DNA of 21,942 nucleotides from a virus (Duplodnaviria; Heunggongvirae; Uroviricota; Caudoviricetes), in the IMG/VR virus record IMGVR_UViG_2565956720_000013; one strand, given 5' to 3'. The notes below the pieces were generated by a model. It did not search any database and was not told where the DNA came from. It saw nothing but the letters and a program-made list of their open reading frames with translations. Made by a program: the position numbers and the translations under genes. This document shows positions 3,123-10,406 of this stretch, piece after piece (position 1 is the stretch's first letter; the number at the start of each line of letters is the position of its first letter).

Positions 3123-3346
3123 TGCCGGACAACGTAGATTTTATTCAGGAACAACAGGCTGAATTACTGGAGCGTCAGATTAACGCGGCAAGGGTAAAAC
3201 ATTGCGGTGCTTCTGCGCTGGTTTGCGAAGAGTGTGACGCGCCAATACCTGCTGCCCGTCGTGCGGCTTATCCGTCAGCCACGCGTTGTGTTTCCTGCCA
3301 GTCAGTCTTTGAAGCAAAAAACAAGCATTACCGGAGAATGGCATGA
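3122..3346 (+). CDS. TraR/DksA-family C4 zinc-finger protein (phage-encoded RNA polymerase secondary-channel regulator type)
   Basis: 74 aa; CxxC-N17-CxxC (CEECDAPIPAARRAAYPSATRCVSCQ); AAGGAG SD; same position as the P2 orf82 zinc-finger ORF. Confidence 0.8.
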   Translation: MPDNVDFIQEQQAELLERQINAARVKHCGASALVCEECDAPIPAARRAAYPSATRCVSCQSVFEAKNKHYRRMA

Positions 3347-3618
3347 GTATTCGTATCGAAATTGGCGAACGTTATGTCGTTACCAGTGACAGCTTTCAGT
3401 TTATTCTCCACGAGAAAAAGAGAGCGGAAAGCGGTAAAAACGCCGGTCAGGAATGGCTGGCGGTGGTTGGTTATTACCCGAAATTAAGCCAGCTCGTTTC
3501 CGGCCTGATGCATCACGATATTCTGACCGGAAGCGCAAAGTCTTTTGCTGATTTAAACGCGCAGGTTGAGCAACTCAGCAAGCGTTGTTCAGAGGCTTTT
3601 GGCTCATATGGCCGTTAA
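3343..3618 (+). CDS. Hypothetical early-operon protein (91 aa)
   Basis: ATGA overlap with the upstream stop; its 3' end overlaps the start of gpA. Confidence 0.45.
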   Translation: MSIRIEIGERYVVTSDSFQFILHEKKRAESGKNAGQEWLAVVGYYPKLSQLVSGLMHHDILTGSAKSFADLNAQVEQLSKRCSEAFGSYGR

Positions 3619-5920
3619 AGCCTCCGGGCGTTTTGTCCCTCCGTCAGCATTTGCCGCAGACACCGGTAAGACGTTTGCCGGTGCTTATGCATGGAACGCG
3701 CCACGCGAGGCTGTCGGGCGCGAAAGACCCCTTACACGTGATGAGATGCGTCAGGTGCAAGGTGTTTTATCCACGATTAACCGCCTGCCTTACTTTTTGC
3801 GCTCGCTGTTTACTTCACGCTATGACTACATCCGGCGCAATAAAAGCCCGGTACACGGGTTTTATTTCCTCACATCCACTTTTCAGCGTCGTTTATGGCC
3901 GCGCATTGAGCGCGTGAATCAGCGCCATGAAATGAACACCGACGCGTCGTTGCTGTTTCTGGCAGAGCGTGACCAGTATGCGCGCCTGCCGGGGATGAAT
4001 GACAAGGAGCTGAAAAAGTTTGCCGCCCGTATCTCATCACAGCTTTTCATGATGTATGAGGAACTCTGCGATGCCTGGGTGGATGCGCATGGCGAGAAAG
4101 AATCGCTGTTTACGGATGATGCGCAGGCTCACCTCTATGGTCATGTTGCTGGCGCTGCACGTGCTTTCAATATTTCCCCGCTTTACTGGAAAAAATACCG
4201 TAAAGGACAGATGACCACGAGGCAGGCATATTCTGCAATTGCCCGTCTGTTTAACGATGAGTGGTGGACTCATCAGCTTAAAGGCCAGCGTATGCGCTGG
4301 CATGAAGCGTTACTGATAGCTGTCGGGGAGGTCAATAAAGACCGTTCTCCTTATGCCAGTAAACACGCCATTCGTGATGTGCGTGCGCGCCGCCAGGCAA
4401 ATCTGGAATTTCTTAAATCGTGTGACCTTGAAAACAGGGAAACCGGCGAGCGCATCGACCTTATCAGTAAGGTGATGGGCAGTATTTCTAATCCTGAAAT
4501 TCGCCGGATGGAGCTGATGAACACCATTGCCGGTATTGAGCGTTACGCCGCTGCAGAGGGTGATGTGGGGATGTTTATCACGCTGACCGCGCCGTCAAAG
4601 TATCACCCGACACGTCAGGTCAGAAAAGGCGAAAGTAAAACCGTTCAGCTTAATCACGGCTGGAACGATGAGGCATTTAATCCAAAGGATGCGCAGCGTT
4701 ATCTCTGCCGCATCTGGAGCCTGATGCGCACGGCATTCAAGGATAATGATTTACAGGTCTACGGTTTGCGTGTCGTCGAGCCACACCACGACGGAACGCC
4801 GCACTGGCATATGATGCTTTTTTGTAATCCACGCCAGCGTAACCAGATTATTGAAATCATGCGTCGCTACGCGCTCAAAGAGGATGGCGACGAAAGAGGA
4901 GCTGCGCGAAACCGTTTTCAGGCAAAACACCTTAACCGGGGCGGTGCTGCGGGGTATATCGCAAAATACATCTCAAAAAACATCGATGGCTATGCACTGG
5001 ATGGTCAGCTCGATAATGATACCGGCAGGCCGCTGAAAGATACTGCTGCGGCTGTTACCGCATGGGCGTCAACGTGGCGAATTCCGCAATTTAAAACGAT
5101 TGGCCTGCCGACAATGGGGGCTTACCGTGAACTACGCAAATTGCCTCGCGGCGTCAGTATTGCTGATGAGTTTGACGAACGCGTCGAGGCTGCTCGCGCT
5201 GCCGCAGACAGTGGTGATTTTGCGTTGTATATCAGCGCGCAGGGTGGGGCAAATGTCCCGCGCGATTGTCAGACTGTCAGGGTTGCCCGTAGCCCGTCGG
5301 ATGACGTTAACGAGTACGAGGAAGAAGTCGAGAGAGTGGTCGGCATTTACGCGCCGCATCTCGGCGCGCGTCATATTCATATCACCAGAACGACGGACTG
5401 GCGCATTGTGCCGAAAGTTCCGGTCGTTGAGCCTTTGACTTTAAAAAGCGGCATCGCCGCGCCTCGGAGTCCTGTCAATAACTGTGGAAAGCTCACCGGT
5501 GGTGATACTTCGTTACCGGCTCCCACACCTTCTGAGCACGCCGCAGCAGTGCTAAATCTGGTTGATGACGGTGTTATCGAATGGAATGACCCGGAGGTCG
5601 TGAGGACGCTCAGGGGTGCATTAAAACACGGCCTGAAAACACCAAATCGTCAGCAAAGAAACGGAAGCCCGTTAAAACCACATGAAATTGCGCCATCGGC
5701 CAGACTGACTCGGTCGGAACGAATGCAAATTACCCGTATCCGCGTTGACCTTGCTCAGAACGGTATCAGGCCACAGCGATGGGAGCTTGAGGCGCTGGCT
5801 CGGGGAGCGAGAGTAAATTATGGTGATATGTCATTCAAATTTCCAGTTGATGATCGATTTTATGATGATGTTAACTCTTTGAATTTATGGAGTATTGAGT
5901 CTCATGTGAACTTCACATAA
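3608..5920 (+). CDS. A: Replication initiation endonuclease gpA (rolling-circle HUH nickase)
   Basis: 770 aa from ATG 3608 (ORF-track start 3566 is a TTG); HUH-type motif PHWHMMLF; tandem active-site tyrosines in GYIAKYISKN as in phiX174-type Rep proteins; syntenic position of P2 A. Confidence 0.9.
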   Translation: MAVKASGRFVPPSAFAADTGKTFAGAYAWNAPREAVGRERPLTRDEMRQVQGVLSTINRLPYFLRSLFTSRYDYIRRNKSPVHGFYFLTSTFQRRLWPRIERVNQRHEMNTDASLLFLAERDQYARLPGMNDKELKKFAARISSQLFMMYEELCDAWVDAHGEKESLFTDDAQAHLYGHVAGAARAFNISPLYWKKYRKGQMTTRQAYSAIARLFNDEWWTHQLKGQRMRWHEALLIAVGEVNKDRSPYASKHAIRDVRARRQANLEFLKSCDLENRETGERIDLISKVMGSISNPEIRRMELMNTIAGIERYAAAEGDVGMFITLTAPSKYHPTRQVRKGESKTVQLNHGWNDEAFNPKDAQRYLCRIWSLMRTAFKDNDLQVYGLRVVEPHHDGTPHWHMMLFCNPRQRNQIIEIMRRYALKEDGDERGAARNRFQAKHLNRGGAAGYIAKYISKNIDGYALDGQLDNDTGRPLKDTAAAVTAWASTWRIPQFKTIGLPTMGAYRELRKLPRGVSIADEFDERVEAARAAADSGDFALYISAQGGANVPRDCQTVRVARSPSDDVNEYEEEVERVVGIYAPHLGARHIHITRTTDWRIVPKVPVVEPLTLKSGIAAPRSPVNNCGKLTGGDTSLPAPTPSEHAAAVLNLVDDGVIEWNDPEVVRTLRGALKHGLKTPNRQQRNGSPLKPHEIAPSARLTRSERMQITRIRVDLAQNGIRPQRWELEALARGARVNYGDMSFKFPVDDRFYDDVNSLNLWSIESHVNFT

Positions 5921-5974
5921 TATGGGGCCGTTGTAGGTGTTTGAACAATCACACTTCAATTCAAAGGGATAGTT

Positions 5975-7222
5975 ATGGTTATTTATCAAGGTGGTAAGAT
6001 AATATCTGAAGATGATTTTTATTCTCATCTTTATTCGTTATGTCAGTTGGATAATGTAGGCGTTCTTTTAGGAGCGGGAGCATCGGTCGGCTGTGGTGGC
6101 CAAACTATGAAGCAGGTATGGCAGTCTTTTAAATATGCACATCCTGAGCTATTGAATTTGTTGCTAGAAAAATACTTACTGGTTGACAATACTGAATCTG
6201 AACAAGACATAGTTAATGTTGAACTTCTGATTGATGAAGTAACTAAATTCTTGTCTGTAGCGAAAACAAGGCGTAATGAAAAAGAACAAAATGAAATTAG
6301 TTTAATATTAAGTGCTTTATATAAACAAGTAACAAGGGCTGCATTGTTAACTGGAGAAGAGTTTGGTTGTAAAAATCAAGGGAAGAAAAACCAGTTTAGG
6401 TCTCATAAAGAATTAATTTCAAAGTTGATTTCAAATAGGCAGCCGGGACAATCGGCACCGGCACTTTTTACCACCAATTATGATTTGGCATTAGAGTGGG
6501 CAGCCGAAGATTTAGGAATTCAGTTATTTAATGGTTTTTCAGGATTGCATACAAGACAATTTTATCCTCAAAATTTTGATTTGGCATTTAGAAATGTCAA
6601 TGCAAAAGGGGAGGCTAGATTTGGTCATTATCACGCTTATCTATATAAGTTGCATGGCTCTCTTACATGGTATCAGGATGATTTTTTAATAGTTAATGAG
6701 GTAAGTGCATCTCAGGCATATGATAATTACATTAAAAATATAATTAATGGTGATGATTTTTACTATGGTCAACATTTGATTTATCCGGGGGCTAATAAAT
6801 ATAGCCATACAATTGGTTTTGTTTACGGTGAAATGTTTAGGCGTTTTGGTGAATTTTTGTCAAAACCTCAAACCGCTTTATTTATTAATGGGTTTGGGTT
6901 TGGTGATTATCATATAAACAGAATTGTTTTTGGTGCTTTGTTAAATCCGTCATTTCATGTTGTTATTTATTACCCTGATCTGGAGAATGCTTTAGATAAA
7001 GTTAGAAGAGGTGTTGCTTCTGAAGGTGAAAAGGCAATTGATGCTTTAAAAAATATGCAATTCAATCAAGTGACTATCGTGGGTGGAGGTCCAGATGCTT
7101 ACTTTGATAGTTTTGTGAAACATCTTCCTTATCCGGTGTTGTTCCCAAGAGAAAATACTGTTGATGATTTGGTTGAAGCTATTTCTAAATTGTCTAAAGG
7201 GGAAGGGAATGTCGCATTTTAA
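5975..7222 (+). CDS. SIR2-like (SIR2_2 / DHS-like NAD-binding fold) protein, predicted NADase effector of a SIR2-HerA-type defence module
   Basis: 415 aa; N-terminal GAGASVGCG glycine-rich motif; TTNYD (sirtuin-type catalytic Asn) about 130 aa downstream; KLHGSL (catalytic His) further on; AT-rich coding sequence unlike the flanking phage genes. Confidence 0.75.
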   Translation: MVIYQGGKIISEDDFYSHLYSLCQLDNVGVLLGAGASVGCGGQTMKQVWQSFKYAHPELLNLLLEKYLLVDNTESEQDIVNVELLIDEVTKFLSVAKTRRNEKEQNEISLILSALYKQVTRAALLTGEEFGCKNQGKKNQFRSHKELISKLISNRQPGQSAPALFTTNYDLALEWAAEDLGIQLFNGFSGLHTRQFYPQNFDLAFRNVNAKGEARFGHYHAYLYKLHGSLTWYQDDFLIVNEVSASQAYDNYIKNIINGDDFYYGQHLIYPGANKYSHTIGFVYGEMFRRFGEFLSKPQTALFINGFGFGDYHINRIVFGALLNPSFHVVIYYPDLENALDKVRRGVASEGEKAIDALKNMQFNQVTIVGGGPDAYFDSFVKHLPYPVLFPRENTVDDLVEAISKLSKGEGNVAF

Positions 7223-9029
7223 ACTATCTGAATTATCTGCTATTGGGTATGTTGTTGGTCTGGAGGGCGAAAAAATAAGGATAAATCTTCATGAAGGATT
7301 GCAAGGTAGGCTAGCCTCTCATAGGGATGGTGTCAGTTCTGTTACTCAGCCTGGAGATTTGATCGGTTTTGATGCCGGAAATATTCTGGTTGTGGCTCGA
7401 GTTACAGATATGGCATTTGTCGAGGCTGATAAAGCACATCAGGCAAAAATAGGTACATCAGATATAGCAGATATCCCGTTAAGGCAAATAATAGCCTATG
7501 CAATAGGTTTTATTAGACGAGATATAGATGGATGTGTGTTTGTTTCGGAAGACTGGAGATTACCTGCTCTGGGAGCATCCGCTGTCCCATTAACATCTGA
7601 CTTTTTAAATGTCGTATATAGTATTGATAAAAATGATCTGGATAAAGCAATTGAGTTGGGAATAGATTCGAGGACTAAATCAGTTAAAATTTTAGCTAGC
7701 ATTGATAAATTACTAACTAGGCATATGGCTGTTTTGGGCAGTACTGGATATGGTAAATCTAATTTTAATGCTTTACTTACACGCCGCATTTCAGAACAGT
7801 ACCCTAATGCAAGAATAGTAATTTTTGATATTAATGGCGAGTATTCTCAGGCTTTTGAAGGTGTTGCTAATGTTAAACATACTATTTTAGGTGAGTTACC
7901 AAAAGGAGAGATTCCAAAACCACCTCTACAGAAAGGAGATATATTTTCTGAGAATAAACATTACTATTATAGAAAAATACCTTATCAAGCATTGGGATTT
8001 GCTGGGTTGATAAAATTACTACGCCCTAGTGATAAGACACAATTACCTGCATTAAGAAATGCGCTTAATGCTATAAATAGTGTTCATTTTTCCGATGATT
8101 CTTTCTTTCTTAAGGATAATGGGGGAAGGGTATTTGATATTTTTGATGATTGTAGAGATGAAGGGCAAGAAGTTTTATCTGCATGGTTGAGTTTCTTAAG
8201 AAGTGGGCATCTGTGTAAGGCAAATAAATGGCCGCCGTTTAAAAGTATTGCTAACTTAGTTGCGGAGTTTGGCTGCGTGGCGGCGGATTCGCGAAAAACT
8301 GGATCTAGTAAACGAGATGCTTTTAGCTATGGCAATGTTCTGCCATTGATTAAGATAATTCAACAGTTATCAGAGGATTCTAGATTCAAGTATATTGTTG
8401 ATTTAAATGGAGGTGGTGAATTATTAAGTGATGGCAAGCATTGGGAATTAGCTATGAGACAGGAGGTTGATTATTTTTTTGGTAAAGAAAAGGGAGAGGA
8501 GAATGACTGGAATATTCATATTGTTAATTTTAAGCATCTTTCACAAGATCATGCTCCAATGCTGTTAAGTGCATTATTAGAAATGTTTGCTGAAGTTCTC
8601 TTCCTTAGAGGTCAAGATAAAGCTTTTCCAACAGTGTTACTTCTTGAAGAAGCGCATCATTATTTAAGAGATCCTTATTCTGAAGTTGATGCTCAAATTA
8701 AAGCTTATGAAAGACTTGCAAAGGAAGGCCGTAAATTTAAATGTTCACTTATTGTGAGCACACAACGACCATCAGAGCTTTCATCAACAGTATTAGCAAT
8801 GTGTGCAAATTGGTTTTCGTTGCGTCTGACAAATGAGCGTGATTTGCAGACTTTACGGTATGCGATGGAAAGTGGAAATGAGTTAATGATTCGGCAGATT
8901 TCTGGGCTTCCCAGAGGAGATGCAATAGCGTTTGGTGCTGCTTTTAATATACCCGTAAGAATTTCAATTCACCCTGCTGTACCCGGTCCGAGATCGTCTG
9001 ACGCAAGTTATTCTCAAGAATGGCGATAA
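7209..9029 (+). CDS. HerA-like (FtsK/HerA superfamily) P-loop ATPase, partner of the SIR2-like protein
   Basis: 606 aa from ATG 7209 (AAGGGGAAGGGA SD; ORF-track start 7161 is upstream in frame); Walker A GSTGYGKSN; Walker B VLLLEEAHHY; downstream LIVSTQRPSELS motif typical of HerA/FtsK-type ATPases; overlaps the upstream gene by 14 nt. Confidence 0.8.
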   Translation: MSHFKLSELSAIGYVVGLEGEKIRINLHEGLQGRLASHRDGVSSVTQPGDLIGFDAGNILVVARVTDMAFVEADKAHQAKIGTSDIADIPLRQIIAYAIGFIRRDIDGCVFVSEDWRLPALGASAVPLTSDFLNVVYSIDKNDLDKAIELGIDSRTKSVKILASIDKLLTRHMAVLGSTGYGKSNFNALLTRRISEQYPNARIVIFDINGEYSQAFEGVANVKHTILGELPKGEIPKPPLQKGDIFSENKHYYYRKIPYQALGFAGLIKLLRPSDKTQLPALRNALNAINSVHFSDDSFFLKDNGGRVFDIFDDCRDEGQEVLSAWLSFLRSGHLCKANKWPPFKSIANLVAEFGCVAADSRKTGSSKRDAFSYGNVLPLIKIIQQLSEDSRFKYIVDLNGGGELLSDGKHWELAMRQEVDYFFGKEKGEENDWNIHIVNFKHLSQDHAPMLLSALLEMFAEVLFLRGQDKAFPTVLLLEEAHHYLRDPYSEVDAQIKAYERLAKEGRKFKCSLIVSTQRPSELSSTVLAMCANWFSLRLTNERDLQTLRYAMESGNELMIRQISGLPRGDAIAFGAAFNIPVRISIHPAVPGPRSSDASYSQEWR

Positions 9030-9183
9030 TCTTGTGGGAGAATGTAATAGGATAACGATAAATGCATCTATCTGCATTAATTCGAATTAGGTTGAGAGGA
9101 GTTCAAAAACAAATTTAGACCGGCATTAGAGTGGTTTAGATAGACATATGCAACTGCATTAAAACCGCCCCGTGAAGCGGGCG

Positions 9184-9202
9184 GGCGAGGCGGGGAAAGC
9201 AC
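9184..9202. other. cos cohesive-end site (P2/P4-type 19-nt sequence GGCGAGGCGGGGAAAGCAC)
   Basis: Exact match to the P2 cos cohesive-end sequence as I recall it; lies between the accessory locus and portal gene Q, as in P2; preceded by the hairpin ccgccc-N8-gggcgg. Confidence 0.7.
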
Positions 9203-9344
9203 TGCGCGCTGGCGGTGGTGCTGATTTTATTTTTTCAGCGTCTGAGCGCGTCGTGATGGCGTTTAGATTGTGTACCGGGGCGTTGGTGTGTCTGCGGGGT
9301 GTTTTGTGCGGTGGTGAGCGTGTGAGGGCGTGATGACGGGGTGT

Positions 9345-9366
9345 AAAAAAGCCGCCCGCAGGCGGC
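9345..9366 (-). terminator. Rho-independent terminator for the leftward P-Q transcript
   Basis: Minus-strand GC stem GCCGCC-tgcg-GGCGGC followed by a run of six T, immediately downstream of the portal stop codon (9372-9374). Confidence 0.55.
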
Positions 9367-9371
9367 GATGT

Positions 9372-10406
9372 TCAGCCGTTGTCAGTGTCCAGTGAGTAGT
9401 TTTTAAAGCGGATGACCTCCTGACCGAGCCAGCCGTTTATCTCGCGGATCCTGTCCTGTAACGGGATAAGCTCATTGCGGACAAAGACCTTTGCCACTTT
9501 CTCAATATCACCCAGCGACCCGACGTTCTCCGGCTTGCCGCCCATCAACTGAAAGGGGATGCGGTGCGCGTCCAGCAGGTCAGCGGCGCTGGCTTTTTTG
9601 ATATTAAAAAAATCGTCCTTCGTTGCCACTTCACTGAGCGGGATAATTTTAATGCCGTCGGCTTTTCCCTGCGGGGCATAGAGAAACAGATTTTTAAAGT
9701 TGTTGCGGCCTTTCGACTTGACCATGTTTTCGCGAAGCATTTCGATATCGTTGCGATCCTGCACGGCATCAGTGACGTACATGATGTATCCGGCATGTGC
9801 GCCGTTTTCGTAATACTTGCGGCGGAACAGCGTGGCTGACTCATTCAGCCAGGCAGAGTTAAGGGCGCTGAGATATTCCGGCATGCCGTACAGCTCCTGA
9901 TTAATATCCGGCTCCAGCAGATGAAACACGGAGCCGGGCGCGAAAGGTGTCGGCTCGTTGAAGGACGGCACCCACCAGTAAACATCCTCCTCCACGCCAC
10001 GGCGGGTATATTTTGCCGGTGAGGTTTCCAGTCTGATGACCTTACCGGTGGTGCTGTAACGCTTTTCCAGAAACGCATTACCGAACACCAGAAAATCCAG
10101 CACAAAGCGGCTGAAATCCTGTTGTGAAAGCCACGGATGCGGGATAAATGTCGAGGCCAGAATATTACGTTTGACGTAAATCGGTGAGCTGTGATGCACG
10201 GCAGCACGCAGGCTTTTTGCCAGACCGGTAAAGCTGACCGGTGGCTCATACCATCTGCCGTTACTGATGCACTCGACGTAATCCAGAATGTCACGGCGGT
10301 CGAGTACCGGCACCGGCTCACCAAAGGTGAATGCCTCCATTTTCGGGGCGCTGGCGGTCATTTTTTTTGCCTCAGGTTGCGGTGTTTTCCCTTTTTTCTT
10401 GCTCAT
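9372..10406 (-). CDS. Q: Portal protein gpQ
   Basis: 344 aa, the length I recall for P2 Q; start overlaps the terminase stop (ATGA overlap); leftward, next to cos. Confidence 0.9.
   Translation of the reverse strand: MSKKKGKTPQPEAKKMTASAPKMEAFTFGEPVPVLDRRDILDYVECISNGRWYEPPVSFTGLAKSLRAAVHHSSPIYVKRNILASTFIPHPWLSQQDFSRFVLDFLVFGNAFLEKRYSTTGKVIRLETSPAKYTRRGVEEDVYWWVPSFNEPTPFAPGSVFHLLEPDINQELYGMPEYLSALNSAWLNESATLFRRKYYENGAHAGYIMYVTDAVQDRNDIEMLRENMVKSKGRNNFKNLFLYAPQGKADGIKIIPLSEVATKDDFFNIKKASAADLLDAHRIPFQLMGGKPENVGSLGDIEKVAKVFVRNELIPLQDRIREINGWLGQEVIRFKNYSLDTDNG

Follow-up and report, generated by a model that had tools for sequence, protein, structure and literature searches.

The DNA analysed here (the window, a stretch of 21,942 nucleotides) most probably carries a functional two-gene SIR2-HerA defence of the Nezha type, which would act by abortive infection and which sits as exchangeable hotspot cargo in an apparently intact P2-like prophage of E. 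coli. We put the probability of this reading at about 90%. The pair is a close variant of the known Nezha system, for which the system type, the structure, the biochemistry and the home in the P2 hotspot have already been published. The positions of both genes and of the features around them are given in Table 1.

Table 1. Coordinates of the SIR2-HerA cassette and of the elements of its prophage slot (positions in the window).
Feature	Position	Strand	Basis
gpA replication endonuclease, left flank of the hotspot	3608..5920	+	ORF; RefSeq "replication endonuclease" in the ET210 prophage
Left edge of the swapped segment: cassette-type upstream region	5824..5974	+	Last position with P2-backbone homology is 5823
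Candidate weak promoter	TTGAGT 5895-5900, N17, TAATAT 5918-5923	+	8/12 positions; absent from the consensus-scan output
SIR2-family (predicted NADase) gene, Nezha/EcSir2 allele	5975..7222	+	ORF, ATG start, 415 aa
HerA-like ASCE ATPase gene	7209..9029	+	ORF, 606 aa
Right edge of the swapped segment: AT-rich non-coding tail	9030..9147	+	Homologous among the three SIR2-HerA lineages
cos cohesive-end 19-mer GGCGAGGCGGGGAAAGCAC	9184..9202	.	Exact string located, which we take to be the P2 cohesive end; the slot is cos-proximal
gpQ portal protein, right flank of the hotspot	9372..10406	-	ORF; RefSeq "phage portal protein"

The gene pair and its likeness to E. coli Nezha

An earlier note, made from the nucleotide sequence, had proposed two co-oriented genes with the SIR2 gene first, and the ORF list confirmed both of them, together with their overlap of 14 nt (7209-7222). 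The HerA-like frame is part of a longer ORF (7161..9029, + strand), in which an internal ATG at 7209 gives the 606-aa product; the same ATG is the start annotated by RefSeq in records with 98.6-100% identity. Shine-Dalgarno-like purine runs were found 5' of both genes (AAAGGGATAGTTATG and AAGGGGAAGGGAATG). Every motif named for the two proteins was located in the translations, these being GAGAS (residue 33), TTNYD (residue 166, including N168) and KLHGS (residue 225, including H227) in the SIR2 protein, and GSTGYGKSN (residue 177; Walker A, 177-185, with K183), LLLEEAHHY (residue 477; Walker B, 477-485) and STQRPSELS (residue 517) in the HerA protein. The SIR2 protein is 100% identical to RefSeq WP_023352401.1 and the HerA protein 100% identical to WP_023352402.1.

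The assignment of the module to the SIR2-HerA family was borne out by Pfam, by PADLOC and by end-to-end alignments with PDB entries, the scores exceeding by far what chance would give. Both proteins scored above the Pfam cut-offs for the expected profiles, with 38.9 bits for SIR2_2 (cut-off 24.5) in the case of the SIR2 protein and 79.3 bits for DUF87, "Helicase HerA central domain" (cut-off 23.2), in that of the HerA protein. The PADLOC models for SIR2 and HerA were matched too, PDLC02186 over residues 1-412 of the SIR2 protein (E=1.8e-188) and PDLC02185 over residues 7-606 of the HerA protein (E=2.7e-272). In NCBIfam, the top match of the SIR2 protein was SIR2_antiphage (NF042942), with 500.0 bits for a cut-off of 500, and that of the HerA protein was HerA_antiphage (NF042943), ahead of any other model by >570 bits; its 701.2 bits lie under the curated cut-off of 800, which is a naming threshold and not a biological feature. 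As a consequence of one score being below its cut-off and the other exactly on it, RefSeq gives the pair the generic names "SIR2 family protein" and "ATP-binding protein". A non-sirtuin fold for the first gene was ruled out by the Pfam, PADLOC, NCBIfam and PDB matches.

Whether the pair was a close relative of characterised proteins or a divergent variant had been left open by the earlier note, and the alignments with the solved system settled the question in favour of a close relative. The window's SIR2 protein is 81.0% identical to PDB 8J4U_A (residues 1-415 on 1-415) and its HerA protein 76.2% identical to 8J4U_M over residues 1-605; the solved E. coli chains (8J4U/8SU9/8SUB/8SUW/8UAE/8UAF) aligned full length, with 768 bits for SIR2 and 1070 bits for HerA. 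The SIR2 protein of the NCTC11129 locus is 100% identical to 8J4U, and E. coli NCTC11129 is the source strain of the tested EcSir2-HerA (PMC11514289). The architecture of the window's pair is nearly identical to that of the NCTC11129 system (Gao et al. 2020; EcSir2-HerA/Nezha; PDB also 8SXX), with the same gene order, a short overlap, a SIR2 protein of 415 aa in both, all catalytic motifs at equivalent positions and the pair housed, in each case, between gpA and gpQ of a P2-like E. coli prophage. In contrast, HerA has 610 aa in Nezha and 606 aa in the window, the junction with gpA differs, and the nucleotide identity is of ~74%, which makes the window's copy a separate allelic lineage.

The stretches of both proteins that had been left unassigned, and in which variant-specific features had been suspected, did not bear out that suspicion, as neither needs a large indel to be aligned with the solved proteins. 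They correspond to the HerA N-terminal beta-barrel and to the remainder of the SIR2 Rossmann fold plus the C-terminal assembly helix described in the literature. The beta-barrel is the part of HerA that inserts into the ring of SIR2 subunits, and it is through the C-terminal helix or extension of EcSir2 that the dodecamer assembles and the N-terminus of HerA is held (PMC11472057, PMC11514289). Among the three E. coli lineages described below, the 30-residue segments of HerA starting within residues 1-60 are 80-100% invariant and the SIR2 segment starting at residue 376 is 77% invariant; at the level of sequence, both E. coli-type assembly elements thus appear to be present in the window's proteins.

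The same pairing, with SIR2 first and HerA adjacent and co-oriented, was found in all the E. coli lineages inspected and in other genera. Among related loci ranging from Scandinavium to Vibrio cholerae, 10 were long enough to show which gene directly follows SIR2, and in all 10 it was HerA. In the Nezha system of classical-biotype V. cholerae, SIR2 is directly followed by HerA as in the window, and the system is an NAD+-depleting defence that requires herA as well as the active site of SIR2 (PMC11559045). The pair of V. cholerae ATCC 14035 is much more diverged (55%/59% aa identity to the window), and no relative of the P2-like gpA or gpQ was found in the stretches of ~2.5 kb and 4 kb that flank the V. 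cholerae locus. The SIR2-HerA systems of Paenibacillus sp. 453MF (8W9L/8WIV family) and S. aureus (8YHX/8YHO) are of the same type as the window's and share with the E. coli type the torch-shaped design of a SIR2 ring plus a HerA hexamer, although their similarity to the window's proteins is distant and local (E 1e-10 to 1e-35). Moreover, the Paenibacillus complex has a 14:6 stoichiometry, and the C-terminal helix of the E. coli type, which the window's protein shares, is missing from the Sir2 of S. aureus (PMC11472057, PMC11514289).

The gpA-gpQ slot, its alleles and their selection

The module is flanked by gpA and gpQ, next to cos, in agreement with its earlier reading as prophage cargo in the cos-proximal slot of P2. 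Over 21.9 kb, the window shares 98.6% identity with the ET210 prophage, the genes of which are annotated as P2-family. P2-backbone homology stops at 5823 and restarts at 9148, so that the swapped segment spans 5824-9147. The two genes stand as first delimited (5975-9029); the segment exchanged is slightly wider and includes the 3' end of gpA, since the region 5824..5974 supplies the last ~32 codons of this gene, in addition to holding the Shine-Dalgarno sequence of SIR2. The GC content across 6001-9000 is 0.32-0.40, versus 0.50-0.61 in the flanking phage genes, a drop that is consistent with acquired cargo.

The P2-like phage KC618326 shares positions 4800-5823 and 9148-9600 with the window at 96-98% identity (98% in the case of 9148-9600, a segment that matches 74 Peduovirus-type phage records) and carries cdtABC between them; the cassette tail (9030..9147) is absent from this cdtABC-carrying phage. 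With shared flanks, different content and different composition, the segment is exchangeable. Rousset et al. 2022 (PMC9122126) described the gpA-gpQ slot as a P2 defence hotspot. The old/tin genes of P2 and the other cargo found there occupy the same exchangeable cos-proximal slot and serve in the prophage-borne exclusion of competing phages, although their proteins are unrelated to the window's pair (PMC9122126). No old, tin or cdt genes were found in the ORF list of the window. The cassette was not found in deposited phage genomes either by a DNA search, where the cos flank alone gave matches, or by a protein search, where the only matches were to SIR2 domains of unrelated phages, at 28% identity; its transfer in virions is therefore suggested by the prophage context. 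In addition, no structured RNA was detected with Rfam at gathering thresholds in the window, including the tail.

The P2 early operon, gpA included, is repressed in the lysogen. We hypothesise that a promoter may lie upstream of the SIR2 gene, where the weak candidate of Table 1 is found; a -10-like box (CATAAT/TAATAT) falls within conserved upstream blocks that, in the alignment, are common to all the cassette lineages. Upstream of 5975, the + strand gave no sigma-70 consensus promoter with at least 9/12 positions. Promoter-like sites in the scan were not more numerous than in shuffled sequences (10 vs 11.7 ± 3.3), and terminator-like sites numbered 4 (2.4 ± 1.9 in shuffles).

Three allelic lineages of the cassette were detected in the gpA-gpQ slot, in a total of 46 out of 5,426 complete E. 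coli genomes, 15 of which carried the lineage of the window, and every inspected example of the three occupied this slot. The second lineage (Combat13F7, WP_097514442.1/WP_112910906.1) shares slot and architecture with the window, at 83.4%/83.7% aa identity and ~77.6% nucleotide identity; its SIR2 protein bears the RefSeq name "anti-phage-associated", whereas the window's is named generically. Both genes are under purifying selection, with pairwise dN/dS values of 0.066-0.077 for SIR2 among the three lineages (dS >1.5, saturated) and of 0.073 for HerA in the single estimable pair (dS >1.5). A ratio of ~0.07 over saturated synonymous sites indicates functional genes that diverged long ago. No positive selection among the alleles was seen in segment-wise dN/dS, which never rose above ~0.27, a measure that with saturated dS is uninformative for episodic selection. 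The lineages, and with them the window's copy and Nezha, differ mainly in a few variable patches. Given as the starts of 30-residue segments, these patches were located at 46-61 and 331-346 in SIR2 and at 211-226, 286-316 and 391 in HerA, the latter all falling in the long insert that separates the two Walker motifs.

Alternative readings of the cassette

One alternative takes the HerA-like ATPase for a housekeeping or DNA-transfer machine (HerA-NurA resection, a translocase of the FtsK/TrwB/VirB4 type or an Old-type protein) with a sirtuin as its neighbour by chance. The protein does give secondary matches of this kind, to TrwB_AAD_bind (26 bits), to FtsK_SpoIIIE (14 bits), to archaeal HerA models (88-92 bits) and, also weakly, to VirB4-type models. 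However, these are local, at the P-loop or in the C-terminal ATPase half, and their scores are 10-50 times below those of the anti-phage HerA models (701-903 bits). In addition, according to the ORF list of the window, the slot is free of NurA, TOPRIM and transfer genes, and the SIR2-HerA pairing is kept across genera. We regard this alternative as effectively refuted, its probability being negligible; an Old-type, ABC or TOPRIM ATPase and a conjugative or FtsK translocase, in particular, were rejected for the second gene, as they gave weak local P-loop matches only. It is also very unlikely that the pair belongs to a mechanistically different Sir2-HerA subtype, like types I-III (Zhang et al. 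2026), in which HerA is a nickase and phage SSB the trigger, and not to the ATP-gated Nezha type. It is true that E. coli contains more than one Sir2-HerA subtype, that these subtypes vary in spectrum and logic (PMC13434337), and that the variable patches set the window's allele apart from Nezha. Nevertheless, types I-III are ~13-22% identical to Nezha (PMC13434337), whereas the window's pair is 81%/76% identical over its full length, and its proteins would join cluster 1 of that study, where SIR2 was clustered at a 70% threshold. Membership in types I-III was rejected on identity to Nezha, the comparison with these types being made through the published identities.

Decay of the cassette was considered as well, in the sense of a decaying or inactive remnant that travels with the prophage as a passenger and no longer serves in defence, and seems highly improbable. 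The related prophage of MB7671 is degraded, with a broken terminase gene and a deletion from gpM to ogr, and no strong promoter was detected, both of which would fit a remnant. Against it, both ORFs of the window are intact and encode proteins 100% identical to those of ET210, the catalytic motifs are all preserved, and dN/dS is ~0.07 with saturated dS across the three lineages. In MB7671 itself, HerA is identical and SIR2 99.8% identical, and the fact that a degraded prophage has kept the cassette intact argues for selection on it.

Proposed mode of action and significance

As a functional defence of the Nezha type, the window's pair would be expected to work in the way described for its 76-81% identical homologue, from the literature on which the stoichiometry, the enzyme activities, the ATP gating and the abortive outcome are inferred here. 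Later papers that summarise the primary work on Nezha (PMC13434337, PMC11472057, PMC11514289) give the elements of the following scheme. The SIR2 proteins would form a two-layer dodecameric ring, into which a HerA hexamer would dock its N-terminal beta-barrels, giving a 12:6 SIR2:HerA complex that the SIR2 C-terminal extension would help to hold together. Once assembled, SIR2 would act as NADase and nuclease and HerA as ATPase/helicase, with these activities being restrained by physiological ATP. A superinfecting phage would lower the ATP level, upon which NAD+ would be hydrolysed, and the resulting loss of NAD+ would stop the growth of the infected lysogen, so that the competing phage would fail to propagate. 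Phage protection with NAD+ depletion, dependent on the SIR2 active site and on the ATPase of HerA, has been reported for the NCTC11129 homologue and for others (PMC11472057, PMC11559045, PMC11514289), and there is disagreement in the literature over how important the helicase and nuclease functions are beyond the NADase (PMC11559045, PMC11514289, PMC13434337).

The window's copy is recognised by standard defence-annotation models, and the finding has little weight beyond its correct annotation. Surveys based on names would miss this allele, given its generic RefSeq names. It is conceivable, though rather doubtful, that the three lineages differ in phage spectrum or in sensitivity to inhibitors, with the variable patches forming a surface for sensing or counter-defence. 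Three long-diverged alleles in one slot, all under strong purifying selection, would offer a natural panel for the surfaces that set the phage specificity of Nezha.

Assignment of the two proteins to the SIR2–HerA system

The two overlapping ORFs described in the earlier note, here called the cassette, were present together with all of the motifs listed for them. Gene 1 carries GAGAS, TTNYD, and KLHGS at residues 33, 166, and 225, and gene 2 carries GSTGYGKSN, LLLEEAHHY, and STQRPSELS at residues 177, 477, and 517. Both genes, which overlap by 14 nt, have the same starts in near-identical RefSeq records, and the GC content across 6001–9000 was 0.32–0.40, compared with 0.50–0.61 in the phage genes on either side.

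Features of the cassette and its surroundings (window coordinates)
Feature	Position	Strand	Remarks
gpA, replication endonuclease	3608–5920		left flank of the cassette
Exchangeable segment	5824–9147		takes in the final ~32 gpA codons
Candidate weak promoter	5895–5923	+	TTGAGT (5895–5900)-N17-TAATAT; -10-like box at 5916–5923
Gene 1 (SIR2)	5975–7222	+	ATG start, 415 aa
Gene 2 (HerA)	7209–9029	+	internal ATG of a longer ORF, 606 aa
GTG ORF	9172–9333		53 aa; probably not a real gene
P2-type cos 19-mer	9184–9202		between the cassette and gpQ; presumably the P2 cohesive end
gpQ, portal	9372–10406	-	right flank of the cassette

The profile searches proposed at that stage assigned the proteins to SIR2 and HerA. 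Pfam identified SIR2_2 in gene 1 and DUF87 (HerA central domain) in gene 2, each above the gathering cut-off, and the PADLOC SIR2+HerA models matched both over their full length (E=1.8e-188 for SIR2 and 2.7e-272 for HerA). The best NCBIfam matches of both were anti-phage equivalogs, with SIR2 exactly on the threshold of NF042942 (500.0 bits, cut-off 500) and HerA under that of NF042943 (701 bits, cut-off 800). These scores explain why RefSeq names the window's allele lineage only generically, as "SIR2 family protein" for SIR2 and "ATP-binding protein" for HerA, whereas the SIR2 of the other two lineages described below is named "anti-phage-associated". The window's own two proteins are 100% identical to WP_023352401.1 (SIR2) and WP_023352402.1 (HerA). 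Surveys relying on protein names will thus under-count the system.

Along their entire length, both proteins aligned with chains of the solved E. coli SIR2–HerA complex (8J4U, 8SU9, 8SUB, 8SUW, 8UAE, and 8UAF), with global identities of 81.0% (336/415) for SIR2 and 76.2% for HerA and the catalytic motifs at equivalent positions; 8J4U is labelled Nezha in a 2026 paper (PMC13434337). This settles in favour of a close relative the choice, left undecided before, between a close relative and a divergent variant. The part of SIR2 that follows its core and the ~170-residue region in front of the Walker A of HerA, both suspected earlier of holding variant-specific features, are not specific to a variant but collinear with the solved proteins, and parts of them are described in the literature: the N-terminal beta-barrel domain of HerA docks into the SIR2 ring, and an E. 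coli-specific C-terminal helix or extension of SIR2 serves to build the dodecamer and to stabilise the N-terminus of HerA (PMC11472057; PMC11514289). Among the three E. coli lineages, HerA 30-residue windows starting within 1–60 were 80–100% invariant, and the SIR2 window starting at 376 was 77% invariant. Both the observation and the interpretation in the earlier note are correct: the pair belongs to a defence system that is already known and whose structure has been solved, it sits in an established hotspot, and standard tools recognise it.

Allele lineages, selection, and alternative readings

Among the complete genomes of E. coli, 5,426 in all, a sensitive DNA search detected the cassette in 46, chromosomal every time. 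Fifteen of these 46 carry the window's own lineage (nucleotide identity of at least 96.8%), and the remaining 31 include a second lineage (e.g., Combat13F7; ~77.6%) and a third one (~73.7%), that of Nezha in NCTC11129. In the single locus inspected per lineage, the cassette lay between gpA and gpQ of a P2-like prophage (3/3). The SIR2 of NCTC11129 is 100% identical to 8J4U, and it was from this strain that the EcSir2-HerA assayed with lambda was taken (PMC11514289). The window cassette is therefore an allele of the tested and solved system, and phage type and slot are shared as well.

When other species were scanned, each represented by one genome, 11 relatives were revealed. That of Scandinavium lactucae showed 85% identity and a gpA homologue upstream, and best-segment SIR2 identities were 55–61% in Vibrio, Photobacterium, Shewanella, Marinomonas, and Paraferrimonas (55% in V. 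cholerae ATCC 14035). HerA was directly 3' of SIR2 in all ten non-E. coli loci long enough to judge. Another of the 11, a 7 kb contig labelled MAG: Bacillota bacterium (JAEYGZ010000011.1), contained a Nezha-type cassette plus gpQ and gpP with 99–100% protein identity to those of the window; it is probably an Enterobacteriaceae contig misbinned into that MAG.

Pairwise dN/dS among the three lineages was 0.066–0.077 for SIR2; for HerA it was 0.073, estimable only between the window and the second lineage, as dS was too saturated in both Nezha comparisons. dS exceeded 1.5 wherever estimable. Judged from these alignments, both genes are predicted to be functional and their alleles old. Divergence was uneven, peaking in 30-residue windows starting at SIR2 46–61 and 331–346 and at HerA 211–226, 286–316, and 391; no such window approached a dN/dS of 1 among the three lineages, a test weakened by saturation. 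The three lineages may differ in phage specificity.

These data bear on other ways of reading the locus. That gene 1 has a non-sirtuin fold is contradicted by its SIR2_2 assignment, and that the HerA-like protein is part of an unrelated ATPase machine is excluded by the Pfam, PADLOC, and NCBIfam matches, the top one being the HerA anti-phage equivalog, together with the alignment to solved structures. The identity of both proteins to Nezha likewise rules out a different Sir2-HerA subtype. An inactive remnant carried in the prophage is unlikely, given that both ORFs are intact, that both genes are under purifying selection, and that the cassette is intact (SIR2 99.8% and HerA 100% amino acid identity to the window) even inside the degraded prophage of strain MB7671. 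In this P2-like prophage, between yegR and yegQ (NZ_CP127848.1 1727989–1741534), the terminase gene is broken and a deletion runs from gpM into ogr; the defence cargo looks to have been kept after the death of the phage.

Proposed mechanism and expression

By homology with the E. coli system (PMC13434337; PMC11514289; PMC11472057), SIR2 would form a dodecameric ring with a HerA hexamer bound, and the complex would have NADase, nuclease, ATPase, and helicase activities. Upon infection, a fall in ATP would release NAD+ hydrolysis, leading to abortive infection.

The SIR2 gene starts only 54 nt after the stop of gpA, and a consensus scan found no + strand promoter in this interval. A -10-like CATAAT/TAATAT box, ~52 nt before the SIR2 start, was conserved in the upstream regions of all five aligned cassettes, overlapping the gpA stop codon in the window. 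With the TTGAGT upstream, it matches 8 of 12 consensus positions, under the threshold of the scan, and is hypothesised to be a weak promoter.

The prophage slot and its cargo

A P2-like prophage adjoining pflA in E. coli ET210 matched the window with 98.6% identity over 21.9 kb. The proposal that the cassette is prophage cargo was borne out by its position between gpA and gpQ beside cos, within the published hotspot that serves P2-like phages as a reservoir of anti-phage systems and holds old and tin in P2 (Rousset et al., PMC9122126). Neither the cassette nor a close SIR2 relative was found in 50,697 deposited phage genomes by DNA and protein searches; P2-like phages bearing SIR2-HerA cargo have apparently not yet been isolated as virions.

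The limits of the exchangeable segment are placed where P2-backbone homology to KC618326.1, a P2-like phage of E. coli O157:H43 T22, breaks (5823) and resumes (9148); homology common to other SIR2-HerA prophages begins at ~5860. As the end of gpA falls inside this segment, an exchange of cargo would also change the C-terminus of gpA. According to the annotation of NCTC11129, the gpA beside its Nezha cassette is a truncated pseudogene. The GTG ORF covering the cos region is doubted as a gene because of this overlap; some records of P2-like phages (e.g., KC618326 8779–8940) list a hypothetical protein at the corresponding stretch, and in others it is unannotated.

In KC618326.1, the gpA–gpQ slot (3304–5446 in the coordinates of the locus compared) contains no defence system, but cdtABC, encoding the cytolethal distending toxin; the slot thus exchanges virulence as well as defence cargo.
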